Source: Candidatus Pacearchaeota archaeon (GTDB lineage Archaea > Nanobdellota > Nanobdellia > Pacearchaeales > GW2011-AR1). Taken from it: a stretch of 64,000 nt of DNA. Shown here one piece after another: positions 3,371 to 19,588 of the stretch. The notes below the pieces were generated by a model, which had not been told where the DNA came from, made no database searches, and saw only the letters and a list, made by a program, of their open reading frames with translations. Made by a program: the position numbers and the translations under genes. The stretch lies in contig JAGLWM010000004.1 of the NCBI GenBank assembly GCA_023133415.1, positions 3,574 to 67,573 of the forward strand. Reading direction: 5' to 3'. Each line of letters starts with the position of its first letter. Positions within the stretch are counted from its first letter, which is position 1.

Positions 3371-3580
3371 ATGAATATCACTATTGGTATTGTTATGAAT
3401 ATTCATAGTAAAAAAATAATCGGGTTGATAAAAAAAGAGAAAGTGGTAACGAGTTCTGAGGTTGCGGATGTGCTTGGGTTGTCGTGGAATACGGCAGATA
3501 AATATTTGATGGAACTCCTTATTGAAGGAAAAATCGATAGAATAAAAAAAGCAGGAGTGAATTTATGGGCGCTGAAATGA
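3371..3580 (+). CDS. small winged-helix DNA-binding protein
   Basis: VTSSEVADVLGLSWNTADKYLMELLIEGKIDRIKK is a wHTH-like pattern. It is the first gene of the surface island. Confidence 0.5.
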   Translation: MNITIGIVMNIHSKKIIGLIKKEKVVTSSEVADVLGLSWNTADKYLMELLIEGKIDRIKKAGVNLWALK

Positions 3581-4395
3581 GTGCTTCGCACAGTAATGGG
3601 CAATGGGCAATGGGCAATGGGCATGTTGCGCTCTGTAGAGCGCTTGGAAGAAAGAGAGGACAGGTAACGATTTTTATTATTGTGGGGATTGTGATTGTTG
3701 TGGGGATTATTGCTTTTGCTTTTCTAATGCGGGATGTTGATATTGGACCAAAGCCTGATATTGATCCAAAGAATATTGTTCGAAGTTGTGTTAATGATTT
3801 GGTTAAAGATTCTATTGATAAGATGCTTATGAATGGTGGGGAAATTTTGCCGACGAGGGCTATTTCTTATGAGGGAGCTGAATGGAATTATTTATGTTAT
3901 CAGGCAGATTTTTATCAAGGATGTTATAATATTCATCCTATGTTAGAGATACAGATTGAGAAGGAAATTGAAAAGGATAGTTTGAGTGGAGTGCAGAATT
4001 GTTTTGATGTTATGAGGCAGGATCTTGAAAATCGTGGATTTAGTGTTGGGGGTGGAGCGACTGATTATTCCATTGATTTGCTGCCTGGATATGTTGATGT
4101 CAAGCTAGAAAAAAGGGTTGAAATTTCTAAGGAGGGGAGTTCGCAGGTTTTTGATGATTTTGGGTTTGAGGTGGTTTCGCCGATTTATGATTTGGTTCGG
4201 GTGGCTCGGCTTATTGTGAATGATGAGTCGCAGTTTTGTAATTTTGAGTATAATGGTTATATGCTTTTATATCCGAAATATGATATTAGGAGAATTGATT
4301 ATCGAGATAGTAAGATTTATCGGTTGATTGATCGGAGGAGTGGGGATGAGTTTCGATTTGCTATAAGGAGCTGTGCATTTGCGCCTGGAATATGA
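3565..4395 (+). CDS. pilin-like protein with class III signal peptide (RKRGQ + hydrophobic helix)
   Basis: ..GRKRGQVTIFIIVGIVIVVGIIAFAFL. Paralog of 8687..9430. The real start may be ATG 3610. The 5' end overlaps hairpin and aatgggc x3 repeat modules. Confidence 0.65.
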   Translation: MGAEMSASHSNGQWAMGNGHVALCRALGRKRGQVTIFIIVGIVIVVGIIAFAFLMRDVDIGPKPDIDPKNIVRSCVNDLVKDSIDKMLMNGGEILPTRAISYEGAEWNYLCYQADFYQGCYNIHPMLEIQIEKEIEKDSLSGVQNCFDVMRQDLENRGFSVGGGATDYSIDLLPGYVDVKLEKRVEISKEGSSQVFDDFGFEVVSPIYDLVRVARLIVNDESQFCNFEYNGYMLLYPKYDIRRIDYRDSKIYRLIDRRSGDEFRFAIRSCAFAPGI

Positions 4396-7300
4396 TGAGA
4401 GAAAAAATAGTTGCGAGTTTTGAATTGATTTTGATGGTTATGTCATTGTTTGCGTTTGCACATGGGGTTTATTTGAGTGATGAGGTATTTGAAAAACTTG
4501 ATGAAAAATATAAGGAAGCAAGGGATTCCAGACTTACTGAGATTGTTGAACTGAGTGAAAGAATTCAGCCTGAAAAATCGAAAATTGGACTCATTGGTGC
4601 TATTTTTAGGAGGTTGAGGGAGCCAATGATTCAGGTTGTTTCAGCGGCGGAAACTTCGTCTGGTATTGATGAACTGGGATGTTGTTTCATGGCTAAAGAT
4701 GGGTCGAAGTGTGGAACTTCGGAGCCTGGAAATTGTGTTGCGGATTCGCCTTTTGCTGAAGGAGTTTTGTGCGCTTATGCCTCATTTTGCCAAAAGGGTT
4801 GCTGTTTTGATGAGAAGTTGGGGATTTATGATAAAAATGTTTTGGAGGCGGATTGTTCGGCGAGTTGGGTGGGGGATCCTAATTGCAATATGCCCGAGGC
4901 GAAGCTTGGATGTTGTATTTTGGGAACAAGTTCGATTTTTGAGACATTGGGGCAATGTGAGATTGATACTTTAGCGAGGGCAATGGGAGATAGTCCAATT
5001 GTTGATTGGAGGAGTGATTTGGATGAAGGACAGTGTTTTTTAATGTCGGCGACACAGGATGAAGGGGCTTGCATTCTCGATGGAGGAGTTTGCACGTTTG
5101 GGAGTGGGGTTGATTGTTATGATTATGGGGGACAGTTTAGCGAAGGTTTTCTTTGCACTTCTTCTTTGTTGAATAGTAATTGTGAGATGACTGAACAAAC
5201 AACCTGTGTTGATGGTAAGGATGGTGTTTATTTTGTGGATTCTTGTGGGAATTATGCGAATATTTATGATTCGGCGAGGGTGAATGACCAGAGTTATTGG
5301 GAGAGAGTTATCGATCCGGAAAATGCCTGCGGAAATGACGATATTGAGGGAAATGCAGATTCTAAAGATTGTGGGAATTGTAATAGATTTTTTGGTGGAA
5401 TTTGTGGTTCGGCAACGGAGGATAATTTTGATGTTGATATTGGGAGTTTCTATTGTAAAGGGACGTCGTGCATGTTTGATGGAGTGAGTTATAAAAATGG
5501 AGAATCGTGGTGTGTTTATGATGGGGCGATTGGCAATGGGGATGATGTTGTAGGATCGAGGCATTGGAAATATGTGTGTTCACAAGGAGTGGTGCAAATA
5601 GAGCCTTGCGCGGATTATCGTAATCAGATTTGCATTCAGACGAATACTTTTGATGTTGAAGGGGAAGAGGTTGAGTTTCGAAATGCTGCTTGTATTGCTA
5701 ATAATTGGAGGGAGTGTATTGATTTGAATGGTGAGGAAGATGGGATAGACCAGTGTGTTGATGCTTTGAATTGTCGAGTTGAAAATGTTGATATTGCGGA
5801 CAAATTTAAGTTTGATGTGTGTCTTCCAAGGTATCCGGGGGGATTTAGTTTAATAGATGAGAGATATATGGTGACGGCGGAGAGCATTTGTGGGATGGCT
5901 GACCAGATATGTACGGTTGTGCGAGAACCGAAGACATGGGGAGGGTGTAAATATGTTGCGAATAAGGCGTGTCTGAGCGAGGGTTTTGCGCAAGAGATGA
6001 ATGATTTTTGCAGGGGACTTGGAGATTGTGGGGGGTCGGTTAATATTTTGGGGGAGTATTCTGAAAATTATAAAGTTACAAAATCTCCCATGTTGAGTCA
6101 GAGTTGGATTAATAAACTGAAAGCATTGGCTGAACCTGTGCCAGGGCAGTTTGCAGAGGTTGAGGATTATTCGGAGTATTTGGAAGCAGCTGGAGTCTGG
6201 GCGAATCCAGAAGAGGCGGCTGAGAGTGGGGATGCTAGGGGAATGGCTGACTTTCAGAATATAGGAATGGGACTTGCGGGAATTGGATATACCGCTGGGC
6301 TTTGGGCTACTGGTGGAAAACTTGCTCTTACTGGACTTATGGAAATAGCGGGGGGATCGTGGTCGGCGACTGTAGCAAGTTTCGCAGGTGTTGCGATTGG
6401 TGCGGGAATTGGTATGATTGCTGGAGCATATCTTGCTGAATATCTTGAATTGAGTCCGGGCGGAAGTATGTTGATGGCGGTAGGTGGGGCGATGGTCGGC
6501 GGGGCTGTTGTATATTTTAGTTTAACTCCAGCACTTTTAGCAAGTCCTTTCTTTTGGGTTGGTATTGCTCTTATTGTTGTATCTCTTTTTTTTGGTGGCG
6601 ATGATTGTCCTCCGATAGAAGTTATTTTTGAGTGTAAACCGTGGAAAGCTCCTTTGGGTGGGAGTGATTGTGAAAAGTGTAATGAAGATTTGTTGAAACC
6701 GTGCTCGGAGTATCGTTGCAATAGTTTGGGATCGGCATGCGAGTTGGTGAATAAGGGAACTGTCCAAGAGATGTGCGCGTCCTCAAGTGATGATGGAATT
6801 CCTCCTGTTTTAAGTCCGCAGTTTGGGACTATTTCCGCGGATGAAATTTATGGTGACATTAGTGATAGTAGATTTAGTTTGACATCCATAGATGGGGGAT
6901 GCATTGATGCTTATACCCCTTTAATGTTTGGCATTGTTACAAACGAGTTGGCATATTGTAGATTTGATATGGAGACAAAAGAGTTTGAGGAGATGGATTT
7001 CGATTTTGGGGGGAATTCTTATTTATATAATCATACGACTGTATTTAGTCTGCCAGACCCGAGTCATGGGCAGAGTCAAGGAGCGGATTGGAATGGAGAC
7101 TTGACTTTGTATATTAAGTGTGTTGATGTTCACGGGCATGAAAGTCCAGGTTTTTACACGATTGATATGTGTGTGAATCAGGGACCAGATAAAACAGCTC
7201 CGCGGATTGTTGCGACTGATCCTGTGAATAATGCGATTGTTGGATTTGATGTTTCGGAGAAGAGTGTTAGTATTTTCACGAATGAGCTTTCGACTTGTAG

Positions 7301-8621
7301 GTGGGACTTGTCTGATGTTGATTATTCTTCTATGTCTGATAATATGATTTGTGATGACATTTTTGGATCGCCTTCTTCGTCTCAGGGATATCTATGTGAA
7401 ACTGTTGTTCCTCTGGCGGGTGGAGATAGCGTTTATTATATTAAGTGTATGGATCAACCGTGGCTTGATAACATGTATGACCGGAATGTAGTGAGCATGA
7501 TTTACAAACTGCGGAAGCCGGAGAAGAAGATTGAGATTGACTGGATTGAGCCAAGTCAAGATTTTGAGAGTGTGACTGATATGACGACGATTGAGTTGCA
7601 GGTTCAGACTTCGGGTGGGGGAGGATTGCATTATTGTTCGTTTTCGTTTTCGGGATATGATAAAATGATTAAGATGTTTGAAACTGGAGCGGATAGAATA
7701 CATGTTCAACCATTAGAGCGACCTATCGGGACTAGTAAGATTTATGTTGAGTGTACTGATGAGACTGGAGATAGTGTTCAATCATGGACTGAGTTTGAGA
7801 TTATTAAAAGGGGAATTGAAATGGAAATTGAGCCGATTGAGGATTCCGTGAGTGCATTTGAAGAGGTGATTGTTGATTTATTGGTTCGAACTTCGGGTGG
7901 AGGTAACGAGCATAATTGTTCTTATTCGCTTAGTGAGGATGGTGTGGGTATTGAGTTTGAGAAGCAGGGAAATGTTGGTGTTCATGAGCAGGGGGTTACC
8001 GTGGCTGTTGGTAGTCGAACGATTTATGTCGAATGTTGGGACGAGGCAGGAAATTCGGCAAAGGATGATGTTTCGTTTGAGATTATTAGAAAAGGGATGG
8101 AGATTGAGATTGAGCCGATTGAGGATTTCGTGAGTGGATTCAAAGAGGTGGTTGTTTATTTACTGGTTCGAACTTCGGGTGGAGGTAACGAGCATAATTG
8201 TTCTTATTCGCTTAGTGAGGATGGTGTGGGTATTGAGTTTGAGAAGCAGGGAAATGTCGGTGTTCATGAGCAGGGGGTTACCGTGGCTGTTGGTAGTCGA
8301 ACGATTTATGTCGAATGTTGGGACGAGGCAGGAAATTCGGCAAAGGATGATGTTTCGTTTGAGATTGCTTATGATACTTCGGTGCCACAGGTTGCCAGAG
8401 TTTGGCAATCTGACAAAAGGCTTTATGTTGTTACAATCGGGGAAACTAATTGTGAGTATTCGACAGTAAGCTGTAAGTTTAATTGGGGTGATGGTGAGTC
8501 TGCTGGAAGTGGACAGGAGCATGTCATTAATGTTATTCGTGGTAAGACATATTATATCAAGTGTGAGGATGAATTCGGGAATGTGCCTTCGGGGTGTTCG
8601 ATAATAGCGCATACGTTATAA
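4392..8621 (+). CDS. giant cysteine-rich membrane/surface protein (N-terminal Cys-rich ectodomain, Gly-rich multi-TM segment, Cys knot, Ig-like repeats)
   Basis: 1409-aa ORF whose ATGA overlaps the upstream stop. Signal/TM at the N-terminus, dozens of Cys (CGNC, GESWCV, EPCADYRNQIC). TM block GMGLAGIGYTAGLWATGG..FFWVGIALIVVSLFFGG. C-terminal repeated beta-rich modules begin D-x-T-A-P. Confidence 0.85.
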   Translation: MMREKIVASFELILMVMSLFAFAHGVYLSDEVFEKLDEKYKEARDSRLTEIVELSERIQPEKSKIGLIGAIFRRLREPMIQVVSAAETSSGIDELGCCFMAKDGSKCGTSEPGNCVADSPFAEGVLCAYASFCQKGCCFDEKLGIYDKNVLEADCSASWVGDPNCNMPEAKLGCCILGTSSIFETLGQCEIDTLARAMGDSPIVDWRSDLDEGQCFLMSATQDEGACILDGGVCTFGSGVDCYDYGGQFSEGFLCTSSLLNSNCEMTEQTTCVDGKDGVYFVDSCGNYANIYDSARVNDQSYWERVIDPENACGNDDIEGNADSKDCGNCNRFFGGICGSATEDNFDVDIGSFYCKGTSCMFDGVSYKNGESWCVYDGAIGNGDDVVGSRHWKYVCSQGVVQIEPCADYRNQICIQTNTFDVEGEEVEFRNAACIANNWRECIDLNGEEDGIDQCVDALNCRVENVDIADKFKFDVCLPRYPGGFSLIDERYMVTAESICGMADQICTVVREPKTWGGCKYVANKACLSEGFAQEMNDFCRGLGDCGGSVNILGEYSENYKVTKSPMLSQSWINKLKALAEPVPGQFAEVEDYSEYLEAAGVWANPEEAAESGDARGMADFQNIGMGLAGIGYTAGLWATGGKLALTGLMEIAGGSWSATVASFAGVAIGAGIGMIAGAYLAEYLELSPGGSMLMAVGGAMVGGAVVYFSLTPALLASPFFWVGIALIVVSLFFGGDDCPPIEVIFECKPWKAPLGGSDCEKCNEDLLKPCSEYRCNSLGSACELVNKGTVQEMCASSSDDGIPPVLSPQFGTISADEIYGDISDSRFSLTSIDGGCIDAYTPLMFGIVTNELAYCRFDMETKEFEEMDFDFGGNSYLYNHTTVFSLPDPSHGQSQGADWNGDLTLYIKCVDVHGHESPGFYTIDMCVNQGPDKTAPRIVATDPVNNAIVGFDVSEKSVSIFTNELSTCRWDLSDVDYSSMSDNMICDDIFGSPSSSQGYLCETVVPLAGGDSVYYIKCMDQPWLDNMYDRNVVSMIYKLRKPEKKIEIDWIEPSQDFESVTDMTTIELQVQTSGGGGLHYCSFSFSGYDKMIKMFETGADRIHVQPLERPIGTSKIYVECTDETGDSVQSWTEFEIIKRGIEMEIEPIEDSVSAFEEVIVDLLVRTSGGGNEHNCSYSLSEDGVGIEFEKQGNVGVHEQGVTVAVGSRTIYVECWDEAGNSAKDDVSFEIIRKGMEIEIEPIEDFVSGFKEVVVYLLVRTSGGGNEHNCSYSLSEDGVGIEFEKQGNVGVHEQGVTVAVGSRTIYVECWDEAGNSAKDDVSFEIAYDTSVPQVARVWQSDKRLYVVTIGETNCEYSTVSCKFNWGDGESAGSGQEHVINVIRGKTYYIKCEDEFGNVPSGCSIIAHTL
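7797..8360 (+). repeat. in-frame tandem duplication, 2 x 282 bp (94 aa module) inside the giant protein
   Basis: EII(K/R)..IEPIED..LLVRTSGGGNEHNCSYSLSEDGVGIEFEKQGNVGVHEQGVTVAVGSRTIYVECWDEAGNSAKDDVSF occurs twice. The 3' roughly 195 nt of each copy differ at one position by eye. An older diverged copy lies just upstream. Confidence 0.9.
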
Positions 8622-8686
8622 GTTAAAGATACTATAATTTATAAATAAAAGATGATTAAAATACGCATGAAAAAGGTTGTGAAAAA

Positions 8687-9430
8687 ATGAATAAAAAAAA
8701 AGGGCAGGTAGCGATTTTTATTATTGTTGCGATAGTTGTGGTTTCGGCGATTTTAGTTTTTTTTCTGTGGGCACGACCGATTTATCTTGAAGAGAGAGAT
8801 GTGAGGTTTGGATTCGAGGGTTGTGTTGGAGATGCGTTGGAGCAGGGGATTGGAGAACTTGAGAAAAATGCTGGATTTGTAAACACTGATTTTAGTTACC
8901 CCTATGATGGTGAGGATTTTGTTTATCTTTGTTATACGAATGAATATTATAAGACTTGCACTGTGCAGGTTCCGTTCTTGAAGAATAATTTTGACGAGGA
9001 GTTGGAGATTTTTATGAGGGATAAAATTGATAGTTGTTATGATAATTCTCTTGAGAATTTGAGGGAACAGGGTTATGATGTGATTGCGGGAGAGGTTGAT
9101 TATAATGTTGAGATTGAGCCTGGTGTTGTTAGGATTGAGATTGAGGCGCCAACTAGCATTGGTGCGCAGAGATTTGTGAGGTTTAATGTCGAGGTGAATA
9201 GTCCGGTTTATGAAATGGTTATGATTGCGACTTCGCTTTTGCAGTTTGAGTCTAAGTATGGTGATTCGGATATTTCTGCGATTAATTTGCTTTATCCTGA
9301 TTATTATATTGATAAGATTAAAAGGGGAGATGGAACGACAGTTTATATTCTGGAACACAAGACTATGGGGAATAGATTTCTGTTTGCTAGTCGGAGTTTG
9401 GTCTGGCCGGCTGGATACGTGTTTGAATAG
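8687..9430 (+). CDS. pilin-like protein with class III signal peptide (KKKGQ)
   Basis: MNKKKGQVAIFIIVAIVVVSAILVFF. Alignable along its length with 3565..4395 (LCY..C, YP.Y motifs). Confidence 0.7.
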   Translation: MNKKKGQVAIFIIVAIVVVSAILVFFLWARPIYLEERDVRFGFEGCVGDALEQGIGELEKNAGFVNTDFSYPYDGEDFVYLCYTNEYYKTCTVQVPFLKNNFDEELEIFMRDKIDSCYDNSLENLREQGYDVIAGEVDYNVEIEPGVVRIEIEAPTSIGAQRFVRFNVEVNSPVYEMVMIATSLLQFESKYGDSDISAINLLYPDYYIDKIKRGDGTTVYILEHKTMGNRFLFASRSLVWPAGYVFE

Positions 9431-9621
9431 ATTGGGCGAGCGTAGAGCCTGAGTAGTATTTGCCGTGCCTGTTTTTTGATTGGGATAATTCTGTTGTTGC
9501 TTTGGAATGGTGACAAAGGAAAGTTTTTTAAAGTATTATGTGTGAGATTTTGTATAATATAATATACAAACCTAAATTGAACATTGACTACTCGCGTTTC
9601 TTGCGTGGTGACTACCAGAAA

Positions 9622-9903
9622 TTTGTATTAGAAAGATGATTTAGACATTGTTGTTTGTACCCGGAATATCTGGAAAGATGTTTTGAAGGTGGACGGAATA
9701 TGTTTGAAATTGGATTGTTTATGTAGTGGAATTTGTGTGTTTTTGTTTTTTAACTTTTTTAGAGGAGGAAAACGTTATGAAGATTGTTGTTTGTATTAGA
9801 AAACTGATTTAGACATTGTTGTTTGTGGACGGAATATGTTTGAAATTGGATTGTTTATGTAGTGGTGTGTTTTTGTTTTTTAACTTTTTTAGAGGAGGTT
9901 TTT
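9622..9903 (+). repeat. tandem duplicated non-coding block ending in a T-rich/Shine-Dalgarno leader cassette
   Basis: tttgtattagaaa..tgatttagacattgttgtttgt..ggacggaatatgtttgaaattggattgtttatgtagtgg + gtgtgtttttgttttttaacttttttagaggagg occurs twice. The first copy precedes only an 11-codon remnant (ATG 9777). Confidence 0.7.
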
Positions 9904-10173
9904 ATGTTTGGATTTGGAAATGAAATATTTATTCTTGTAATGGTTTTGGTTTCTGCGGGTTTGATAATTGGAATCGCGGACAATATTCCTAAATTAGGAA
10001 TAATCTTTTTTACCATCCTCGCTTTGGCTGCTTGTCCTATTGTGACCATTCTTGTTGAGATTTATAGTGATCTCAGTATGGCGTTACTCTTTTTGCCATA
10101 TGTTCTTATGGTATCAACAGTGGGAATTGTGAAATGTGCAGGTAACTTGTTGGGCAAGAAGAAAGATTACTAG
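9904..10173 (+). CDS. small integral membrane protein
   Basis: MFGFGNEIFILVMVLVSAGLIIG.. has 3 predicted TM helices. GGAGG lies 6 nt upstream of the ATG. Confidence 0.55.
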   Translation: MFGFGNEIFILVMVLVSAGLIIGIADNIPKLGIIFFTILALAACPIVTILVEIYSDLSMALLFLPYVLMVSTVGIVKCAGNLLGKKKDY

Positions 10174-10228
10174 GAGGAGGGTTTGTGTGTGTTTTTGTTT
10201 TTTTAACTTTTTTAGAGGAGGAAATATT

Positions 10229-11131
10229 ATGAAGAAGATGATTGTTGTTGGGATAGTTATTATGATGTTTGGAATGGCTGAGATTGTTTTTGCTGGAGGG
10301 ATTACTGGAGGTACAACTCGGAATACCACAAATCGGCAGAGGCAGCAGGCACAGCAAAGAATGGATAACCAGCAGTGCAAGGATCCTGGTGTTTCTCAGG
10401 AGACTCTTAACATGGGAAAGAAGATTCTTAATAAGGTTTATCCTGTAACTGAAACTATGGAGAGGTTGATTAGGGGAATGAAGTGGGCGGCTGATAAACA
10501 GAGAGATGGTGGAGGCGTTCCGCCTACTGGTTCTACGGTGAAGGGGAATCCTGAGCTTGTTGGGATAAAAAGCTCGAATTTTTATAACGAAACTAAAAGA
10601 TATGTGGAATCTGGGGCGCTATTTCGGGCCATGTGGAACAACTTAAATAAAGTTATTGGAGTAAAGGACATTTGCCCGGGCGGTTTTCTTGTAGCTGTGG
10701 ATTTTAATAGAGGCGGGAGACAATATTATGAAATCCGCTCTTTTGAATTTCCTCTTCCTGAAGAAGTTATTTCTAAAATTGAAGAAGTTAATAATACATA
10801 TTGGAATGTTAGAACGATTAGGGATAACAATCTTCAATCGCTTGGCTTTATTACCGTTAATCAGCTCCGTAAGCATGGAAGGCGGGGTCGTGACTTCAGG
10901 ACTGGTGCTCTTTATAAATGGGATCTGTGGAAATTTTCTTATAAAAGAAATAGTGGATACTGGTTTCTGGCTATAGATATAGCTAGTAAAATTTATATTC
11001 CATCTGCTGATTTTCAGGAAAAATTTCTTCGAGAAGAAACAATAGAATTTTTAAAGGATACCCAGCGATTTTCTGGATCTGAACATAAAGCTATCATGTA
11101 TAAAAAAATTCCAGATACTTGGAAAAAATAG
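10229..11131 (+). CDS. secreted hypothetical protein
   Basis: MKKMIVVGIVIMMFGMAEIVFAGG signal peptide. A third copy of the leader cassette with GGAGG precedes ATG 10229. The track start 10136 runs through the cassette. Confidence 0.6.
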   Translation: MKKMIVVGIVIMMFGMAEIVFAGGITGGTTRNTTNRQRQQAQQRMDNQQCKDPGVSQETLNMGKKILNKVYPVTETMERLIRGMKWAADKQRDGGGVPPTGSTVKGNPELVGIKSSNFYNETKRYVESGALFRAMWNNLNKVIGVKDICPGGFLVAVDFNRGGRQYYEIRSFEFPLPEEVISKIEEVNNTYWNVRTIRDNNLQSLGFITVNQLRKHGRRGRDFRTGALYKWDLWKFSYKRNSGYWFLAIDIASKIYIPSADFQEKFLREETIEFLKDTQRFSGSEHKAIMYKKIPDTWKK

Positions 11132-11340
11132 TAGCTTGCGTAAAGTTCCTGACATTGTTCTATTGTGAAGATTAAAATCCTTAATTCAAAAATAATCCTA
11201 TAAAATTTATGTGTGGAATATTAATACATTCCACACATAAATTTTTTTTGCTTATGTGGTTACCATTGATTACCACTAAAAGTTTTGCTTTCAGAGAAAC
11301 TAGAAAATAGATAGTGAGGGTGGATGATGGGAATAATAGA

Positions 11341-11350
11341 ATTTATAAAT
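11341..11350 (+). promoter_or_regulatory. TATA box, part of a roughly 40-nt block conserved with 14121-14160
   Basis: atagaatttataaataagggaatgctgtattgtttATG. TATA centre is about 26 nt from ATG 11371. Confidence 0.55.
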
Positions 11351-11370
11351 AAGGGAATGCTGTATTGTTT

Positions 11371-13182
11371 ATGGAGACTATTAGAGGTGTTGGGTTATTG
11401 CGGATTTGGTTGTTGGTTTTTGGAGTGTTTGGGTTTATGTTTGTGCTTACGGGGATGACGTCTGTTGTTGCGCAATCTGCAGTGTCGGAACCAAGTTTTT
11501 GTTGTGAGAAGACGGTAGATGGGGCTTGGTGTGTAAATGAGAAGGAAAGTGTTTGTGATGCTTCTTATAATGCTGCGCCTACCTCGTGTGAGACGACTTC
11601 ATATTGTAGGCTTGGGACTTGTTATGATTCGGTTGAGGGAATTTGTATGGAGAATACGCCGCAGAGAGTTTGTAACGATAATGGTGGGACTTGGGATGCT
11701 CGGGAGATTGAGGAGGTGGCACAGTGTCAGCTTGGATGTTGTGTGATTGCGGATCAGGCAGCATTTGTTTCGCTGGTTCGATGTAAGAGGTTGTCGACTT
11801 TGTATGGGGTTGAAAGTGATTATAGGACGGATGTTTTTAATGAGATTGATTGTATCGCTGAAGCACAGGCGCAAGATATTGGGGCGTGTGTTTATGAAAA
11901 GGAGTTTGAGAGAATTTGTGAGTTCACGACTCGGGGAGAATGTGGAGCTGGAGAGAGGGTTGAGACTTTGGATCAGACGAATATTAGTTTGGGTAGTGAG
12001 AGGACTTTTTATGAGGATTTTCTTTGTTCGGCGGAGGAGTTGAATACGGCTTGTGCGCGGCAGACTGGGACGACTTGTTATCAGGGGGATGTTTATTGGT
12101 TGGATTCTTGTGGGAATCGGGAGAATGTTTATTCGAGTGATAGAGTGAGGAGTTGGAATAATGGTCGAGTTGCGGAGGCGGATAAGGTTTGTAATAGGAA
12201 TGACGGGACGAATATGAATTGTGGGAATTGTGATTATTTGCTTGGGAGTCGGTGTGCGGAGTTTGAGGGCATAATTGGTGGACCTGCTGGGAGTGATCAT
12301 TATTGCCAGAAAACTGAGTGTGTGGATCGGGATGGAAACAAAAGGATGAATGGGGAGTCGTGGTGTGTGAGGGGCGCTTCGTTGATGGGTGACGGGTTGG
12401 ATGCTGTTGGATCAAGATATTTTAAGGAAGTTTGTATTGATGGCAATGTAAGGGTTGAACCATGCGCTGATTTTAGAAATGAGATCTGTTTAGAAGGGAG
12501 TATAGAAACAAGTGATGGTGATTTTGGGACGGCGGCTTGTCGTGTGAATAGATGGCAGGATTGTGTTTTGCAGGAAGAAGAGGAGGATTGTTTAAATATT
12601 GATCAGAGAGATTGTTTGTGGTTGCCTAGTGTTATGGGAATGATTTTGGGAGGTGGGCAGAGTGGAGAGGGGGTTAGTTATAGTAATCCGACAGCCAGTG
12701 AGCCGGCGTTTAGTAATCCTACGGCAACTGGGAGTGTTATTGCTTCGATAACTGGGTATTCGATTTTTGGGGATGATGAGGAAGAAGGGGAAGAGGGGAC
12801 TACGACGAATAGACCGGATGGAGTTTGTGTTGCGAATTTTCCTCCGGGTTTAGAGTTTTGGGAAGAGAGTAGTGCGCGGCAGATTTGTGGGCAGGCGAAT
12901 GCTAGGTGTGTTGTTGTTTATGAGAAAGGTTTGATTGGAGGGAGTAAAATTGTTGAGGGGAGAGAATGTTTGGAGGAGGTTTGGGCTTTGGGTGCGAATC
13001 GGGTTTGTGCTGGACTTGGGGATTGTGGCGGTTATGTGAATTATGGGGGTGTTTATAGCGATGACGGATATAAGTGGGTTGTTGATGGAGAAGATAAGGA
13101 GTTTAGTCCGAATGCAGTGAATATTGTGAGTGGTGGGTTTACGGGTCGGGTTATTAGTTTGGTCAGTGGATGGTTGGAATAG
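11371..13182 (+). CDS. secreted cysteine-rich protein, paralog of the N-terminal half of 4392..8621
   Basis: Shared blocks: Y(F/W)(V/L)DSCGN..N(I/V)Y, CGNC, NGESWCV, VGSR(H/Y)(W/F)K(Y/E)VC, EPCAD(Y/F)RN(Q/E)IC, GLGDCGG(S/Y)VN. Ends before any TM block. Confidence 0.8.
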   Translation: METIRGVGLLRIWLLVFGVFGFMFVLTGMTSVVAQSAVSEPSFCCEKTVDGAWCVNEKESVCDASYNAAPTSCETTSYCRLGTCYDSVEGICMENTPQRVCNDNGGTWDAREIEEVAQCQLGCCVIADQAAFVSLVRCKRLSTLYGVESDYRTDVFNEIDCIAEAQAQDIGACVYEKEFERICEFTTRGECGAGERVETLDQTNISLGSERTFYEDFLCSAEELNTACARQTGTTCYQGDVYWLDSCGNRENVYSSDRVRSWNNGRVAEADKVCNRNDGTNMNCGNCDYLLGSRCAEFEGIIGGPAGSDHYCQKTECVDRDGNKRMNGESWCVRGASLMGDGLDAVGSRYFKEVCIDGNVRVEPCADFRNEICLEGSIETSDGDFGTAACRVNRWQDCVLQEEEEDCLNIDQRDCLWLPSVMGMILGGGQSGEGVSYSNPTASEPAFSNPTATGSVIASITGYSIFGDDEEEGEEGTTTNRPDGVCVANFPPGLEFWEESSARQICGQANARCVVVYEKGLIGGSKIVEGRECLEEVWALGANRVCAGLGDCGGYVNYGGVYSDDGYKWVVDGEDKEFSPNAVNIVSGGFTGRVISLVSGWLE

Positions 13183-13289
13183 GGGATTTTTGTTTCTTTG
13201 GGTTGGGTAGATAATGTGAATGACCTTGTTGTTGCTTTGGAATGACAACTTATGGAAAGATTTATAAAATATTTTATCTTGGATATTGT

Positions 13290-14120
13290 ATGAGTCTTGT
13301 GGATTATGTCTCGAAAACTGGAGAAAAGGTTGGGGAATTTGGTAGTCGAATTTATGATGTTGCTTCTGCTTCAAAGAAGGCGGTGAATACGGGATTGGTT
13401 GGGTTGGCTATGTGTGGACTTGTTGCGACTTCTGGATGCTTGAGCACTTATGGGAAAATGGCTGCCAGGGATTTGGCTTATACTGGAATGCAACAGGCAG
13501 TTGTGAGTGGAGTTCGGAGTGAGCTTGAAGGAAGAAGGGATGGTCAGAGGGTGGTGGAGAGGAGTAGCAATACAAGAAGAAGGGATAACCAGAGGGAAGT
13601 GGGGAATAATCGTGGAGATGTGGCGAATGGGAATAGGGGGGTGCAATATGTGAGAGAGCGAGAATTAGTTGTGCAATATTATAAAGATTTTAATGGAAAT
13701 AGAATATTAGATACTGGGGAAATTTTAGGGGATGTTGAAGAATCAGTTAATTTGGATAGGTATGGATTGTTGGTTGGATTAGGGACGTCGTCTCCTTTAC
13801 CAATAATTTATTTTGTTTTGGATTCTAATGAAAACAAAGTTTCACAGGGAAGGAGTGAAGGAGAGAGAGTTGGGTGGGGATATATTACTTCTTCAAATGT
13901 TTTTGCAGGAGATTGGATAGATAACTTGAATGGAGCAAGTAAAGAAAGGCCTGGGGAATATACTATTTATGTTCAGCAAGATGGATGTTCTAAAATTTTT
14001 AAGAAAAAAATTAATATCACGAGGGATTCGATGGGGTCTTCTTCTGAGCAATCTTTTAATGAGTCTTTTATTAGGGATAATCCTGTTGAATCTTTTATTA
14101 ATGAATCTTCTATTTGGTGA
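13290..14120 (+). CDS. membrane-anchored hypothetical protein
   Basis: TATA gatttataaaat at 13259-13270 lies about 27 nt upstream of ATG 13290. Single hydrophobic segment GLVGLAMCGLVATSGC. Sits between the two halves of the split paralog. Confidence 0.55.
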   Translation: MSLVDYVSKTGEKVGEFGSRIYDVASASKKAVNTGLVGLAMCGLVATSGCLSTYGKMAARDLAYTGMQQAVVSGVRSELEGRRDGQRVVERSSNTRRRDNQREVGNNRGDVANGNRGVQYVRERELVVQYYKDFNGNRILDTGEILGDVEESVNLDRYGLLVGLGTSSPLPIIYFVLDSNENKVSQGRSEGERVGWGYITSSNVFAGDWIDNLNGASKERPGEYTIYVQQDGCSKIFKKKINITRDSMGSSSEQSFNESFIRDNPVESFINESSIW

Positions 14121-14127
14121 TGATAGA

Positions 14128-14137
14128 ATTTATAAAT
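14128..14137 (+). promoter_or_regulatory. TATA box, duplicate of the 11341 promoter block
   Basis: atagaatttataaataagggaatgttgtattgtttATG. Confidence 0.55.
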
Positions 14138-14157
14138 AAGGGAATGTTGTATTGTTT

Positions 14158-16242
14158 ATGAAGATTGGCATTAGAGGTATTGCATTGTTGCAAGTTTGGT
14201 TGTTGGTTTTTGGAGTTGTTGGATTTGTATTTATGATGGGGAGTGTGAGTGGGGTTAAGCATGGTCCATATATTGGGACTGTTGATATTACTCCTTATGA
14301 CATAATTGATTATTCCTCTGACCCTAAACCCTCTTCTCTTAATACCCCTGTTCCAGGGGAGACTGTTGTAAAGGAGACTGTTATAGAGGAGACTGTTGTA
14401 GAGGGGGCTGTTTCTGGTTCTGATTCTTATCTTTCTAAATTATTCGGATTACAAAAAGGTGGTGGACCGAGTGCTCTTGCTACTGGTTTGCAGTGGGCGG
14501 TAGTTGCTTATTTTGCTGGGACGATGATTGGAGATCTTGTCGGGTTGAATGAGGATAACAGTAAGGCTTTGGGTGCGGCGATGGCGGCTGGTGTTGGGAC
14601 TTATGTTTTTTTAGATACTTATACGAGTAGTGCTTTGCTTGGGGAAGGTGGTCAGCTTGCGTTTTTGGGAGCTAATCCTCCTTTGGTTGGCTTGGGTGTT
14701 GGAGTTGTTGTTTTTGCTTTGATGTATAAGGATGTTGATACGGAGGTTGTGACATTTAATTGTATGCCGTGGCAGGCGCCGATTGGTGGGGATGATTGTG
14801 AGATTTGTAATGATGAGGAGTTGCCTTGTAGTGAGTATAGATGTAGATCTTTAGGGCAGAATTGTGAGATTGTGAATGTGGGAACTACCGACGAGAAATG
14901 TGTGAATGTGAATCCTGGGGATGTTAATCCTCCGGTGATTGCGCCTAAGTATGATGCTTTGACTGCTGGATATGAATATCGGAATGTGAAGCTTTCGCCA
15001 CCGGGGCCTGGTTTTGAAATTGTGAATGTTGCATCCGCAGATGGTTGCTTGAAGGCTTTTACTCCGTTGGAATTTGGTTTGACTTTGAATGAGCCGGGAC
15101 AGTGTAAGATTGATTTTAATCATACGGAAAAGTTTGACGATATGGTTGCGTTTGTTGGGGGGAGTAATTTGTTTTCTTATAATCATAGTGAGGCATTTAG
15201 TTTGCCTGGGGCGAAGGATTTGAGTGATAATGGTTTTGTTTTGGAGAATGGGAAGGATTTGACTTTCTTTGTGAGGTGTCGAGATAAGAATGGGAATGAG
15301 AATTCGGCTGAGTATGCTATTAATTTTTGTATTGACCCTAGTCCTGATAATACGGCTCCAAAGATTGAGGCGACTTCGATTGTGAATGGTGGGTGTGTTG
15401 CGGAGGAGCAAGATACCGCGAATGTTGTGTTTTATACTAACGAGCCGGCGAATTGTAGATGGGATTTTCAGGATCAGGATTATGATTTGATGGCTAATGG
15501 CATGGATTGTGAGAATCAGTTTTGGCAGGCTAATGCGGCGCAGTTGTTTGGGTGTTCTGCGGAGTTGACTGGGATTGCGAGAGATGGCACGACTTTTTAT
15601 GTGAGATGTAAGGATCAGCCTGGGAAAGATGAGGCGGATAGGAATGAAAATAGGGAAAGTTTTGAGTTTAATTTGAGAGGAAGTGTGGGCTTGGTTTTGA
15701 GGAACTTGAAGCCGAATGAGACTATTTTTAGTGGGGTGAGTCCTAGTCCGATTGAGCTTTATGCCGAGACATTGTTTGGTTGTAATAATGGGAGAGCTAT
15801 TTGTGCGTGGTCTGATGATGGAACGAATTATATTCAGTTTTTTGATACGGATAATGAGGATGGGATTCATACTCAGAGATTAGATTTGGTGGGTGGTGAG
15901 CATAAATATTTTGTGAGATGTGTTGACGCTGGAGGAAATTTGGTTGAGGATGTTGCAAGTTTTAGGTTGGATATTGATGTGGATGCTCCGGTGATTGCGA
16001 GAGTTTATGAGGAAGGGCAGATGTTGAAGATTGTGACTGTTCGGAATAGTGAGTGTTCTTATAGTCATGATAATTGTGACTTTATGTTTGGTGAGGGGAT
16101 AGAGATGCCTTATGGGAATACGACTGTTCATGTTGCGGAGTGGGATGAGAAGAAGACTTATTATATCAAATGTCGAGATGAGTTTAGGAATGAGGACGCT
16201 GATTGTTCTATAGTGGTGCGGCCTACTAGTGATTTTATTTGA
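14158..16242 (+). CDS. membrane/surface protein, paralog of the C-terminal half of 4392..8621
   Basis: Gly-rich TM block, then F(N/E)C(M/K)PW(Q/K)AP(I/L)GG(D/S)DCE.CN..(L)PCSEYRC.SLG..CE(I/L)VN, and Ig-like modules with the ..CRWD.. motif. The signal peptide is almost identical to that of 11371..13182. Confidence 0.8.
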   Translation: MKIGIRGIALLQVWLLVFGVVGFVFMMGSVSGVKHGPYIGTVDITPYDIIDYSSDPKPSSLNTPVPGETVVKETVIEETVVEGAVSGSDSYLSKLFGLQKGGGPSALATGLQWAVVAYFAGTMIGDLVGLNEDNSKALGAAMAAGVGTYVFLDTYTSSALLGEGGQLAFLGANPPLVGLGVGVVVFALMYKDVDTEVVTFNCMPWQAPIGGDDCEICNDEELPCSEYRCRSLGQNCEIVNVGTTDEKCVNVNPGDVNPPVIAPKYDALTAGYEYRNVKLSPPGPGFEIVNVASADGCLKAFTPLEFGLTLNEPGQCKIDFNHTEKFDDMVAFVGGSNLFSYNHSEAFSLPGAKDLSDNGFVLENGKDLTFFVRCRDKNGNENSAEYAINFCIDPSPDNTAPKIEATSIVNGGCVAEEQDTANVVFYTNEPANCRWDFQDQDYDLMANGMDCENQFWQANAAQLFGCSAELTGIARDGTTFYVRCKDQPGKDEADRNENRESFEFNLRGSVGLVLRNLKPNETIFSGVSPSPIELYAETLFGCNNGRAICAWSDDGTNYIQFFDTDNEDGIHTQRLDLVGGEHKYFVRCVDAGGNLVEDVASFRLDIDVDAPVIARVYEEGQMLKIVTVRNSECSYSHDNCDFMFGEGIEMPYGNTTVHVAEWDEKKTYYIKCRDEFRNEDADCSIVVRPTSDFI

Positions 16243-16246: not shown

Positions 16247-16346
16247 CACTGGGGGTTCATAAAAGCTTTGCTTTTATGGAGGGGTTCAGCTTTGCTGGAG
16301 GGGTTCAATCACTTCGTGATTGGGGAGTTCATGCTTCGCATGGAGA
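16247..16346 (+). repeat. array of four GGTTCA-[variable stem]-CTT(T/C)G-[stem']-TGGAG hairpin units
   Basis: ttcataaaagctttgcttttatgga, ttcagctttgctgga, ttcaatcacttcgtgattgg, ttcatgcttcgcatgga. Confidence 0.8.
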
Positions 16347-16388: not shown

Positions 16389-16751
16389 ATGTGGAATATT
16401 GAGGGGTTAGATGTTTATAGAAAAATTTGTGATTTAATAAAGAAAGTTTATGGGTTAATTGGGATGCTGCCTAGCGAGGAGAAGTTTGCACTTGGTGATC
16501 AGATGCGGCGAGCTGTTACGAGTGTTAAATTGAATATTATTGAGGGGTCGGGGAAGAGGACGAGCAAAGAATTTATTTCTTATTTGAATAATGCAATGGG
16601 GAGTTTGCGTGAGGTTCGTGGGTGCGTTGAAGTTGGGGTTGATTTGGGATATTTTGTAAAGAGTGGGAGAAAAGAGACTAATGAGATTAAACGGATTGAA
16701 AGATTGTTGGCTGGATACATCAAATATGTTGAAAAGAAAAATGTTAAGTGA
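16389..16751 (+). CDS. four-helix-bundle protein (23S rRNA intervening-sequence protein / Avd-like family)
   Basis: DVYRKICDLIKKVYGLIGMLPSEEKFALGDQMRRAVTSVKLNIIEGSGKRTSKEFISYLNNAMGSLREV is the family hallmark pattern. Confidence 0.8.
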   Translation: MWNIEGLDVYRKICDLIKKVYGLIGMLPSEEKFALGDQMRRAVTSVKLNIIEGSGKRTSKEFISYLNNAMGSLREVRGCVEVGVDLGYFVKSGRKETNEIKRIERLLAGYIKYVEKKNVK

Positions 16752-17530: not shown

Positions 17531-17579
17531 GGAAGTAGAAAGATTTAAAATAACTATTATTGTGGTTATTATAACCTTT

Positions 17580-18098
17580 ATGGTGATTATTATGGAATTT
17601 AAGATTTTTATTGAGAAGAGCCCATTGGCTCGAAAAGTTTTTGGGAAACGGGAGATTGTGATTATTCGTAAACAGATTGCTGGGATTAATTTGACGCAGT
17701 CGGAGAAAAATAGGCTTTCCAGGGATATTCGACCGAAGTTAAGATTTATTCTGGAGGCTTCAAAATTTAGAGATGAGTTTGATTTGAAGAAGGGAAGTGA
17801 GAATAGAAAAATTGTTGAGAACGTTTTGGAGGTAATTAGGAAAGATGAGGATTTTGGGAAAATTTTGGAGATTTGGTTGTTTGGCTCGATGGTAGAGAAC
17901 AAGATGACGATTCGTTCTGATGTCGATGTTTGTGTTTTATTTGATAGGATTGGTCAAGTTGGTGCTGATAAGTTTAGATTGAGGATTTTGGGATGGCTTA
18001 GTGATAAGGCTGATGTTCAAGTGTTTAATATTTTGCCTAATAAGATTAAAAAGTCAATATTAAAAAGTCATAGGGTATTGTATAAGAGAAATGGGTGA
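17580..18098 (+). CDS. mntA: nucleotidyltransferase-domain protein (MNT-type antitoxin candidate) with N-terminal extension
   Basis: LFGSMVENKMTIRSDVDVCVLF (GS..SDxD) motif. Start uncertain (17562, 17580 or 17592). Confidence 0.7.
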   Translation: MVIIMEFKIFIEKSPLARKVFGKREIVIIRKQIAGINLTQSEKNRLSRDIRPKLRFILEASKFRDEFDLKKGSENRKIVENVLEVIRKDEDFGKILEIWLFGSMVENKMTIRSDVDVCVLFDRIGQVGADKFRLRILGWLSDKADVQVFNILPNKIKKSILKSHRVLYKRNG

Positions 18099-18492
18099 TA
18101 GAAAAGGTGATAAGATTGTTGAGATAGAAGAGTATTCGGATAAGTTGACTGAATTTTTTCCTTCTGATTTTAAAAATTATACTTCTGACGAGAAAACCAA
18201 AGCGGCATGTGAGAGATATTTTGAGAAGATTGTCGAGAGTGTTGTTGATTTGGCATTCTTTACTATTAAAGAAGAAAATTTTAGGGCGCCAGAATTTGAT
18301 AGGGAGGCATTTGAAATTTTAGCTGGGAAAAATCTAATTTCTGAGAAACTTTCTTTGAATCTTGGCAATGCGAAATCTATGCGAAATTGGTTGGCACACA
18401 GATATGGGAAAGTTGACGATAAAAAGGTGTTTGAGGCTATTCGTGATAAGTTGTTTTATGATGTTAGAGATTTTTTGGAGGCAATAAAATGA
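18091..18492 (+). CDS. hepT: HEPN/DUF86-domain protein (HepT-type toxin candidate)
   Basis: RNWLAHRYG (R-x4-H-x-Y) motif. Overlaps the MNT gene by 8 nt. Confidence 0.75.
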   Translation: MGDRKGDKIVEIEEYSDKLTEFFPSDFKNYTSDEKTKAACERYFEKIVESVVDLAFFTIKEENFRAPEFDREAFEILAGKNLISEKLSLNLGNAKSMRNWLAHRYGKVDDKKVFEAIRDKLFYDVRDFLEAIK

Positions 18493-19424
18493 AAAGGGGG
18501 CAGTTTAGTTTTGTCTGGTTGTTTGCGATTTTGGCGGGTGGGGCGATTTTGGCTTTGGCGATTTGGGGTGCGATGCAAGCTGGAGGCACATTGAGATTTC
18601 AAAGTGAGACCGAGGCTGCCAAGAGTATTTCGATTTTGACTGATCCTTTGCAGACTGGTTTTGCCGAAGGGTCTTTTGGGAAGATTTCTTTTCGGCAGAA
18701 AGCTCGATTAAATAATATTTGTTTGGATTCTGGATTTGGGAAGAATGATATTTCGGTCGCAATACGAAGCAGTGTTGGGAAAGAATGGAATTTGGCTGGA
18801 GGTGCGACATCTGTTCACAATAAATATATCTTTTCTGAAGAGGTGAATGAGGGTTTTGATTTTTTTGTTTTTTCTAAGTCTTTTAATTTTCCGTATGAGG
18901 TTAGTGATTTGATTTTTTTGAGTTCTGGAAATTATTGTTTTTTGAATTCGCCCGAAAGTGTTGAGGAGGATGTTTTGGGATTGGGAATTGATAATGTTGT
19001 TCTTGATAATTGCAGTATTGGGGATATTCGAGTTTGTTTTGGAGGCGGTGTTGATTGTGATATTTTTGTTTATGGGTCGTGTTCGGGAAATTGTGATTCA
19101 ATTTATGATGAGGGGACTGTTGCGAAGGAGGGTGGGGATTCTGATTATGTTGGGAATTTGATGTATGCTGCGATTTTTTCTGATAAGGAAGTTTATGATT
19201 GTAATGTTAGACGGTTGTTGTACCGAGCGAAAAGTATTGCAGATATTTTTGTGGAGAAGAGTGATTTGATGAATGCTCGGAATTGTAATACTAATTTGAA
19301 GGGTGATTTGATTGTTTGGAGTGCGATGCTGGAGGGTGCTGGTTCTGAGGATTTGGTTTTGTTGAAGGGGTTTGCTAAGAATTTAGGAAGGAAGGAAGAC
19401 AGGGAGTTGTGTAGGGTATGGTAA
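18489..19424 (+). CDS. pilin-like protein with class III signal peptide (MKRGQF)
   Basis: MKRGQFSFVWLFAILAGGAILALAIWG. ATGA overlap with hepT. Confidence 0.7.
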   Translation: MKRGQFSFVWLFAILAGGAILALAIWGAMQAGGTLRFQSETEAAKSISILTDPLQTGFAEGSFGKISFRQKARLNNICLDSGFGKNDISVAIRSSVGKEWNLAGGATSVHNKYIFSEEVNEGFDFFVFSKSFNFPYEVSDLIFLSSGNYCFLNSPESVEEDVLGLGIDNVVLDNCSIGDIRVCFGGGVDCDIFVYGSCSGNCDSIYDEGTVAKEGGDSDYVGNLMYAAIFSDKEVYDCNVRRLLYRAKSIADIFVEKSDLMNARNCNTNLKGDLIVWSAMLEGAGSEDLVLLKGFAKNLGRKEDRELCRVW

Positions 19425-19588
19425 AAAAGCTTTGCTTTTTTACCGGTGGTCGGGGGTCGGTGGTCGGTAGTCGGGATGACTTGGGCAACTTGCGGGGGTC
19501 GGGAGTTGGGGGTCGTGAGTCGTGGGTCGTGAGTCGTGGGTTGGGGGTCGTGAGTCGTGGGTTGGGGGTCGGGGGGAAGGGGGGGCAG
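19425..19588 (+). repeat. G-rich GGTCGG-type modular repeat (hairpin aaaaagctttgcttttt, 26-nt core, gacttgggcaacttg module, gtcgtgagtcgtgg subrepeats, G runs)
   Basis: Core ggtcgggggtcggtggtcggtagtcgg at 19448-19473 is identical to 57612-57637. Open in frame with the downstream CDS (track ORF 19418..20074). Confidence 0.85.

Follow-up and report, generated by a model that had tools for sequence, protein, structure and literature searches.

The division of one surface protein into two separately encoded parts has been described for the type IV pilins of Geobacter, in which fission is represented by PilA-N (GSU1496) and PilA-C (GSU1497), the C-part has its own signal peptide, and halves that lie in one operon need no new promoter (PMC5174107, where the fission mechanisms of Leonard & Richards 2012 are also summarised). 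In addition, system 1 type IV filament (TFF) loci with varied pilins and accessory proteins are reported to occur in DPANN archaea (bioRxiv 10.64898/2026.04.22.720090). Here we describe a locus from a Candidatus Pacearchaeota archaeon in which a giant protein is encoded once as a single fused gene (F) and, further along the same strand, by a pair of paralogous genes (N and C) that correspond to its N-terminal and C-terminal halves. The locus lies in a 64,000-nucleotide stretch of contig JAGLWM010000004.1 (assembly GCA_023133415.1), referred to throughout as the window, and coordinates are those of the window unless a related locus is named.

The likeness to Geobacter PilA lies in a surface protein that exists as one gene or as two adjacent genes whose products match its N- and C-terminal parts, and the point made for the Geobacter operon is matched by the overlapping N and C genes of 21 species described below. 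However, sequence and fold are unrelated and the proteins at this locus are giants (600 + 700 amino acids). Here, moreover, every genome combines a fused with a split paralog, at least six changes of state have taken place, the membrane module is accompanied by a specific N-terminal anchor, and a promoter-plus-signal cassette appears to have been copied between the halves. The joint explanation that best fits the data, and that we consider probable, combines an ancient and labile split between N and C, a rule for the placement of the anchor, and the copying of a cassette from C to N within an operon that had been broken. In most cases gene fusion or fission is deduced from two end states, whereas here a fused control paralog stands, in every genome, beside a sister copy that is found in all states across dozens of species, and the anchor rule together with the copied cassette makes the constraints on splitting a membrane protein (topology and co-expression) directly testable. 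The proteins form a conserved, wholly unannotated part of an envelope locus of Pacearchaeota/Woesearchaeota-type DPANN, located by an S-layer gene. To our knowledge, no organism of this group is in culture, and literature searches turned up no description of this giant-protein family.

Two split genes collinear with a fused paralog

The window belongs to a DPANN chromosome of the Pacearchaeota type (it encodes primase, FtsZ and ribosomal protein L3), and its N protein corresponds to NCBI protein KAT36_01640 of a Pacearchaeota metagenome-assembled genome. The giant genes are as follows.

4392..8621, + strand: F, fused giant, 1409 amino acids
7793..8356, + strand: internal tandem duplication within F, 2 x 282 nt, 94% identity (repeat family D1)
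11371..13182, + strand: N, N-type half, 603 amino acids from its ATG, with 41 Cys in a predicted disulfide-rich head
14158..16242, + strand: C, C-type half, 694 amino acids from its ATG

An earlier, sequence-only reading had proposed that the two split genes together rebuild the architecture of F, and our alignments confirm it. The open reading frames (ORFs) are as claimed, with that at 13290..14120 lying between the halves, and BLASTP with composition-based statistics aligned F residues 97-461 with N-half residues 44-415 (33% identity, E 2e-45), F 476-561 with N-half 485-568 (44% identity, E 7e-14), and F 636-1247 with C-half 97-694 (31% identity, E 2e-74). A second alignment of the C-half (F 1204-1407), via the duplicated immunoglobulin (Ig)-like repeat of F, reaches the common C-terminus. 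N and C map to collinear, non-overlapping stretches of F (97-561 and 636-1409), and the pairwise similarity is not confined to Cys/Gly patches. F itself begins with an anchor (MMREKIVASFELILMVMSLFAFAH), followed by a Cys-rich head (about residues 97-561), a hydrophobic glycine-zipper block (about 657-742), a Cys-rich segment and Ig-like repeats. The 282-nt tandem duplication, seen in the protein as a repeated EIEPIED...FEII segment, adds one Ig-like repeat, and because of it F is the longest of 60 orthologous giants (1040-1409 amino acids, median 1241).

Homologs of these proteins (labelled P0068 and so forth, with the related loci labelled L001, L002 and onward) fall into three length classes that often occur together on one contig, namely F-type or fused (359 homologs, typical length about 1230 amino acids), N-type (920 homologs, about 600) and C-type (more than 242 homologs, about 700-800). 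They are labelled Candidatus Pacearchaeota, Nanoarchaeota or 'archaeon', and the cluster is also present in DPANN labelled Woesearchaeota. The contigs of P0068/P0142/P0245, P0243, P0225/P0354 and L037, which carry the cluster, were deposited as Methanococcoides sp. SA1, Pseudomonadota bacterium and Patescibacteria group bacterium; these odd names probably stem from binning or labelling errors. A scan of one genome per GTDB species identified 263 species with an N-type relative, and 80 loci were kept, each from a different species; the two-module layout described below recurs in these.

Each giant or pair of halves is preceded by a small gene.

3565..4395, + strand: p1, 276-amino-acid pilin-like protein (...KRGQ followed by a hydrophobic helix), whose stop overlaps the start of F by 4 nt
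8687..9430, + strand: p2, 247-amino-acid pilin-like paralog of p1 (...KKKGQVAIFIIVAIVVV...)

The term pilin-like was given to p1 for its KGQ motif only, and p1 has no Pfam match. In seven contigs fetched around N-type orthologs (L001-L007) the common gene order is primase ... PCNA ..., p1, F, p2, N, C. An approximately 315-amino-acid gene, other small genes, an S-layer protein (PF05124) and a glycosyltransferase are located 3' of C, more pilin-like genes are also found downstream, and the products of p1 and p2 measure about 250-276 and about 245-250 amino acids, respectively. The cluster consists of two tandem paralogous modules, one comprising p1 and the fused giant F and the other comprising p2, N and C, and p1 and p2 are themselves paralogous (repeat family D11). 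This arrangement looks like the product of a tandem duplication of a unit made up of one small protein and one giant. Of the 63 loci whose upstream DNA was long enough, 60 show a p1-preceded fused giant before p2, deepest branches included. Since even the deepest lineages possess both the fused giant upstream and the second copy downstream, the paralogy is older than the whole sampled clade.

An old, labile split and the position of the anchor

The state of N and C could be assigned in 63 informative species, in which the two are fused (13 species), adjacent or overlapping (21) or separated (29). The fused form is an uninterrupted ORF of 1215-1442 amino acids, with two genes in the other 50 species; P0319 (1210 amino acids) was called as a single gene by its source as well. 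Members of the adjacent class typically display ATGA overlaps, and in the separated class, to which the window belongs, N and C are 176-6579 nt apart. In a neighbour-joining tree of the N region, reconstructed from protein distances and rooted with F-type N regions, fused forms are scattered among split ones. The N/C clade is monophyletic and the state at its root is split, both in 100 of 100 bootstraps, and across these bootstraps 6-10 changes between fused and split are required. At least 13 changes between adjacent and separated are needed as well. The F-type copy is unsplit at every locus where it was found.

These results show that the N/C split is as old as the sampled clade and is evolutionarily labile. 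The sequence-only reading had regarded the locus as a natural experiment in fission or fusion that defines two autonomous modules. A fresh fission is not borne out, as a fused paralog and a split pair are present in all sampled lineages and the root of the N/C clade is split. The idea of two autonomous modules stands, and is supported far more strongly by the occurrence of the same paralog in fused, adjacent and separated form across the 63 species than by the window alone. As for which arrangement is ancestral, the split state can be assigned to the root of the N/C clade; the state in the common ancestor of both paralogs (F and N/C) is ambiguous, with a fused outgroup paralog, a split N/C root and no single-copy lineage in the sampled loci.

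Some genomes also contain a third, shorter fused paralog (about 1040-1100 amino acids) with an ordinary signal peptide in place of the anchor signal described below. It is found in L002 (5278-8481), L029 (5589-8732), L035 (1202-4456) and L034 (14635-17919, - strand), and is represented by P0103, P0104 and P0107.

F-type proteins start with a conserved anchor signal, with the consensus N-K-K-(I/V/A)-(I/V)-A-(G/S)-F-E-L-x-L-M-I-V-S-x-F-A-F anchored on E/Q; a more general form is N-K-K-x-(V/I)-A-(G/S)-F-(E/Q)-L-x-L-M-I-V-S-x-F-A-F, and in C-type proteins the signal reads K-K-(G/A/S)-(V/I)-A-(G/S)-F-(Q/E). A hidden Markov model (HMM) built from F-type N-termini recognized this signal, at a threshold of 10 bits, in 104 of 105 F-type, 59 of 105 C-type and 10 of 109 N-type proteins. 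All 13 fused N-C proteins start with it, compared with 1 of 49 split N genes (Fisher p 1.7e-12), and none of the fused proteins contains it internally. Other stand-alone N proteins possess ordinary (Sec) signal peptides that end just before S-x-P-S-x-C-C-E-(K/R)-T. The distribution shows that the anchor signal sits at the start of whichever polypeptide holds the membrane hairpin and the stalk. By hydropathy, three membrane-grade segments are present in C (about residues 8-26, 106-124 and 166-195), with an equivalent set in F, and from these we infer that head and stalk are both extracellular, with the membrane hairpin between them. With this topology the first helix of the hairpin must enter the membrane from the outside, so that a preceding in-to-out anchor is needed, which would explain the rule; the same topological need would mean that a split C gene must have a 'signal' of its own.

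One subgroup of C-type proteins (P0258, P0260, P0320, P0325, P0326, P0328, P0331, P0332, P0333 and P0336; e.g., L004 7793-10144) lacks the anchor signal and instead carries an ordinary signal and an extra N-terminal domain (...L(K/V)KVSDL(K/Q)PGD(V/I)I(I/V)D...), which makes it an exception to the anchor rule.

A promoter-and-anchor block on both N and C

The 5' ends of the two split genes in the window share a block, of which the copy on C is probably the ancestral one.

11336..11445, + strand: block copy on the N gene (putatively derived), promoter plus codons 1-25 (METIRGVGLLRIWLLVFGVFGFMFV)
14123..14235, + strand: block copy on the C gene (putatively ancestral), promoter plus codons 1-26 (MKIGIRGIALLQVWLLVFGVVGFVFM)

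The sequence-only reading had noticed a shared promoter and signal of about 100 nt on both genes, and this likeness is real. Through the ATG, 37 of 38 nt are identical, and the first 25 aligned codons are identical at 60 of 75 nt and 16 of 25 amino acids, with one 3-nt indel; the 36 nt situated 5' of the block are unrelated (13 of 36 identical). Overall the copies are 85% identical, with about 16 differing positions. Exactly two occurrences of the 24-mer ATAGAATTTATAAATAAGGGAATG are present in the 64 kb, compared with 0.00 expected from shuffles.

It could be argued that no copying took place and that the likeness arose through convergence or shared constraint on a strong promoter and a hydrophobic signal, given that in several species a conserved family of TATA elements precedes p2 and separated C genes. 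However, the near-identity spans the non-consensus spacer to the ATG and continues through the aligned codons, several of which are identical at the nucleotide level, and the repeated 24-mer is not expected by chance. Among 48 species with separate N and C, moreover, similarity between the 5' regions of the two genes is unique to the window (local score 63.5, compared with 15 or less in the 47 others). We give next to no weight to convergence. Since the contig is metagenome-assembled, a repeat-induced chimera arising in assembly or binning should also be considered. Such a chimera would be expected to yield identical copies, not copies that are 85% identical; the same junction of accessory gene, block and C recurs in an independent assembly from another sample (L006, C-half 98% identical); and gene order is otherwise syntenic with 80 other genomes. 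The differences between the copies and the junction in L006 exclude an assembly artefact, leaving it a negligible residual chance.

The sequence-only reading had also proposed a direction, in which fission left the C-half to borrow the promoter and export signal of the N-half. In keeping with this scenario, the block is present on both genes, and a C-half split from a fused gene needs a new start and a membrane-insertion signal. The comparison with other species reverses the direction. The window C-half begins MKIGIRGIALLQVWLLVFGVVGFVFMMG, an LLQVW variant. Of 120 C-type cluster representatives, 12 carry a start of this type (G(V/I)ALLQVWLLVFG), as do the C genes of L001, L003 and L031; it is found on no F-type protein, and among N-type proteins it is confined to that of the window. 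With the promoter included, the window C copy is identical to the L031 C gene at 98 of 115 positions (the two window copies match each other at 99 of 118). When compared with either copy, N-gene 5' regions from 7 other species reach scores of no more than 16. Past the block, the window N protein continues ...FMFVLTGMTSVVAQSAVSEPSFCCEKT, resembling the native signal end of ortholog P0122 (...FMFVGMTQVVVAETAMSEASFCCERT), so that its signal ends in native N-type ...GMTSVVAQSAVSEPSFCCEKT and is chimeric, with a C-type start joined to a native end, ...GMTSVVAQS/AVSEPS. Because the LLQVW start is native to C and absent from other N proteins, and because N keeps its own signal end, the block appears to have moved from C to N, and we consider borrowing in the opposite direction very improbable. 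Codon differences between the copies comprise 9 nonsynonymous and 3 synonymous changes, a conserved Gln has become Arg in the N copy, and the promoter is nearly unchanged. This pattern would fit selection on the promoter, with the N copy drifting towards a signal of the ordinary, cleavable kind.

Another scenario is recent fission of a fused N-C gene, in which a duplicated cassette of promoter and anchor would have inserted into the linker that joins head and hairpin, closing the upstream frame and opening a new one, with the result that both halves carry it. The cassette does possess a promoter, a start codon and an anchor, and it has stops in two of the three frames (an initial suggestion of stops in all three was rejected). 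All fused N-C proteins start with the anchor signal, so that a fresh split would leave it on both halves; some of the nearest relatives by distance have anchor-like N signals (17.8 bits in L004, 7.7 bits in L008), and N and C are fused in a neighbouring clade (L010, and probably L009 and L021). On the other hand, the C-region tree groups the window with the split species L003 and L001 in 200 of 200 bootstraps, and the C genes of these species carry the orthologous LLQVW start. In addition, the 3' part of the chimeric N signal matches native stand-alone N signals, the odd one out is the cassette on N and not that on C, and the root of the N/C clade is split in every bootstrap. Recent fission is in our opinion distinctly unlikely.

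The preferred reading, in which the cassette was copied from C to N, also draws on the surroundings of the two genes. In most of the 80 loci the distance from p2 to N is -4 nt, with p2 translationally coupled to N; in the window it is 1940 nt, and both spacers contain additional features.

8635..8648, + strand: TATA-type promoter element of p2 (TAATTTATAAATAA), of the same family as the block element
9492..9555, + strand: putative decayed promoter/5' copy of the intervening-gene family, with a degenerate TATA box and the ATG lost
10226..11131, + strand: ins1, lineage-specific gene, 301 amino acids, with an ordinary signal peptide and GGAGG 5' of it
11202..11255 (also delimited as 11202-11245), + strand: terminator-like hairpin with an 18-bp stem followed by a T run, between ins1 and the N promoter copy
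13227..13291, + strand: promoter/5' region of the intervening gene (GGAAAGATTTATAAAA...ATG)
13290..14120, + strand: ins2, the intervening gene, encoding a 276-amino-acid membrane-anchored accessory protein; the ORF can also start at 13242; no Pfam match

The TATA-type element RAWTTTATAAATAA precedes p2 (8635), N (11339) and C (14126), and the 64 kb contain only one further plausible site; the N copy contains the TFB-recognition-element (BRE)/TATA-like promoter TTTATAAATA at 11342-11351. Elements of the p2 type are also found upstream of p2 in L004, L007, L001 and L003. The same element heads the p2-N-C operon in relatives, and the same promoter precedes C where C is separated from N (L002, L007, L014, L016, L019 and L031). 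Since the TATA box lies 29 nt before each ATG and no Shine-Dalgarno-like sequence occurs between them, the mRNAs are probably leaderless. A sigma-70 promoter scan was uninformative for an archaeon (21 sites versus 17.9 expected), and only its hairpin and T-run output was used.

The membrane-protein gene between N and C had been described as unrelated. It is not a random insert, as its family lies directly upstream of C in at least five other species (L031, with 43% identity and E 4e-59, and L014, L016, L019 and L078), with further homologs in L015 and L020. For ins1, no homolog was found in 86 related loci, and there was no Pfam/NCBIfam match. The two inserted genes are unrelated to each other (best E 0.36), and the resemblance of ins2 to the gene that occupies its slot in L002 is limited to about 30 N-terminal residues (E 3e-4). 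The segment at 9492-9555 is 77% identical to 13227-13291 over 65 nt (E 2e-8) and also matches the orthologous promoters of L014, L020 and L002, so that related sequence stands at the start (this segment) and at the end (the block) of both the p2-N and the N-C spacer. The 5' region of ins1 (a T-rich stretch, GGAGG and ATGAAGA) is triplicated at 9734, 9864 and 10186 (repeat families D8, D9 and D13). Repeats of about 136 nt also surround a small ORF with several membrane helices at 9905..10173, within 9622-10235.

We propose the following history. In the window lineage, a normally overlapping p2-N-C operon would have been broken, such that p2 and N are now about 1.9 kb apart, with the lineage-specific ins1 and the T-run hairpin between them, and an accessory gene parts N from C. 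The insertion would have cut N off from the operon promoter. A cassette of about 110 nt from the C gene, comprising the BRE/TATA promoter, the leaderless start and about 25 anchor codons, would then have been copied onto the 5' end of N, where it replaced the start of N and left its own signal-peptidase site in place. N would thereby have regained a promoter of the operon type, with head and stalk still co-expressed, and the N copy would afterwards have drifted towards an ordinary signal. This could have come about through one tandem duplication whose breakpoints fell in both signal-coding regions, the upstream N copy being lost afterwards; such a duplication would also account for the second, weaker shared segment at 9492-9555.

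Several points weigh against this history and the framework on which it is built. The anchor rule is not absolute, as the F-built HMM gives less than 3 bits for 26 of 105 C-type proteins, and these low scorers include the LLQVW variant of the window and a group with a different N-terminal domain. It should be noted that the promoter, the leaderless start and the terminator are read from sequence. The single-duplication route would require a later replacement, two separate short copies are equally possible, and tblastn of the interior of the p2-N spacer detected no remnant of N or of an accessory gene. No species-tree reconciliation underlies the neighbour-joining trees, and the crown ancestor could have been fused if fission is much easier than fusion. 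The placement of the window N is unstable, its nearest relative by distance being L004 and its position in 176 of 200 bootstraps (taxon subset) being with the L003 clade. A recombinant locus, with an L004-like N and an L003-like C, was considered and is not claimed (C is solid in 200 of 200 bootstraps, N is divided 24 of 200 versus 176 of 200). Finally, Pfam/NCBIfam scans of all seven proteins yielded sub-threshold noise only, with no match at E up to 0.1 for p1, p2, F, N and C. A scan of the 20 larger window ORFs detected neither a secretion ATPase nor a platform protein nor a prepilin (class III) peptidase, and the cluster is weakly linked to pili.

Predicted folds, possible function and other features of the window

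The C-half was modelled with AlphaFold2 from a 120-sequence alignment with a mean predicted local distance difference test (pLDDT) score of 84.6. The model shows an anchor helix (6-26), a disordered linker (28-87) and helices at 103-127, 132-155 and 168-189 that form the glycine-zipper membrane hairpin, followed by a small Cys-rich domain and about five Ig-like beta-sandwich domains, the latter modelled at high confidence. Foldseek returned 472 PDB matches at E up to 1e-3, the best being Ig/fibronectin type III (FN3) arrays (E 5e-16), and the predicted fold thus resembles a beta-sandwich array of the kind formed by Ig-like surface repeats. Big_13 (PF19077) is sub-threshold in the window proteins (13.7-13.8 bits versus a cutoff of 27 bits) and is precomputed on several orthologs. 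Tandem Ig/FN3 adhesins such as PTP-delta, NCAM, Aureispira GhpA and the 'large adhesion protein' 6xi3 resemble the C stalk (E 5e-16 to 1e-9), but the matches are generic, with 10-13% identity and TM-scores of 0.1-0.3. None of the Ig/FN3 matches offers a counterpart to anchoring through an N-terminal helix plus glycine-zipper hairpin, or to the association of such a stalk with a disulfide-rich head.

For the N-half (AlphaFold2) the mean pLDDT is 74.5; much of the core at about residues 210-430 exceeds 90, and most of the stretch at about 480-590 exceeds 80. The head measures about 460 amino acids in the giants, and of the 41 Cys in the N-half head about 25 are invariant and a dozen more nearly invariant across 120 orthologs. 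Foldseek gave nothing significant for this half (best E 0.75 in PDB and 0.14 in BFVD, which holds predicted viral structures), and PDB sequence-profile searches with 120-sequence alignments found no relative of either half (N-half best E 0.31). The head is confidently predicted as a disulfide-rich domain that lacks a known fold in the searches made.

Six genes of the locus (3565, 8687, 16916, 18489, 19418 and 20071) encode (K/R)G-Q followed by a hydrophobic helix, which we take to be the layout of EppA-type archaeal pilins. Among C-type proteins, the residue after K-K in the anchor signal is G, A or S in 69%, with E/Q five residues on (+5 if cleavage occurs there); F-type proteins mostly have I or V in place of the small residue. 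At the level of the motif, the C-type anchor signal mimics type IV pilin signals. Curated pilin and class III signal models (Pfam and NCBIfam, E up to 0.1) match none of p1, p2, F, N and C. Archaeal TFF system 1/Epd-type loci contain many class III-signal pilins and adhesin-like accessories, and the six KGQ-type genes constitute the likeness to them here; the giants and the Cys-rich head do not figure in the passages of the account of system 1 considered here (bioRxiv 10.64898/2026.04.22.720090).

We infer that head and stalk belong to an extracellular complex of the envelope or for attachment, with which the pilin-like proteins may be associated, and the tight p1-F and p2-N coupling hints at 1:1 complexes. 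A more far-reaching and unlikely possibility is that the giants are pilin-like parts of a DPANN-specific surface organelle, used for example in host attachment, in which the anchor would be a type IV pilin-style class III signal with the characteristic acidic or amide residue at +5, each giant would be coupled 1:1 to a KGQ pilin (in keeping with the 4-nt overlaps of p1-F and p2-N), the head would be the binding end and the cassette would be portable. If this were true, a portable promoter-start-anchor cassette could split and rejoin a membrane-protein gene in few steps, and would account for the six or more flips at the N/C junction while F stayed fused in every genome.

G-rich GGTCGGGGGTCG-type repeats occur upstream of or inside the 5' ends of pilin-like genes (19445-19580, 20596-20640, 25123-25167 and 25575-25619), as well as in L004 (about 990-1030), in L002 (about 5210-5250) and upstream of giants in other species. 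They yield an odd N-terminal extension of ORF 19418..20074 (...GSVVGSRDDLGNLRGSGVGGRESWVVSRGLGVVSRGLGVGGKGGQ...). A repeated intergenic hairpin, GCGAAGC-TTT-GCTTCGC, is followed by TTTTTGGTT(G/T)TTGGTT repeats (families D3-D5) and is present in 4-5 copies after genes of the envelope cluster (21028-21108, 24762-24874, 26492-26604 and 27240-27366); this element may represent a lineage-specific terminator.

Downstream of C, a 23S-rRNA-IVP/bAvd-like gene (16389..16751) lies between direct repeats of about 51 nt (78-96% identical) with a small hairpin AATCACTTCGTGATT, the whole spanning 16277-16848. Its position between repeats looks like a cassette insertion, and copies or fragments of the same family are scattered in L001 and L002. 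MNT/HepT toxin-antitoxin pairs are found in the window (17562..18492) and scattered in L002, L004 and L007. Finally, most of the window (1-64000) has a + strand GC skew of +0.4 to +0.6. At third codon positions the skew is +0.645 in genes of the + strand and, measured on their coding strand, -0.505 in genes of the - strand, so that the + strand is G- and T-rich irrespective of gene orientation. This unusually strong skew suggests a very large mutational bias linked to replication or repair in this lineage.

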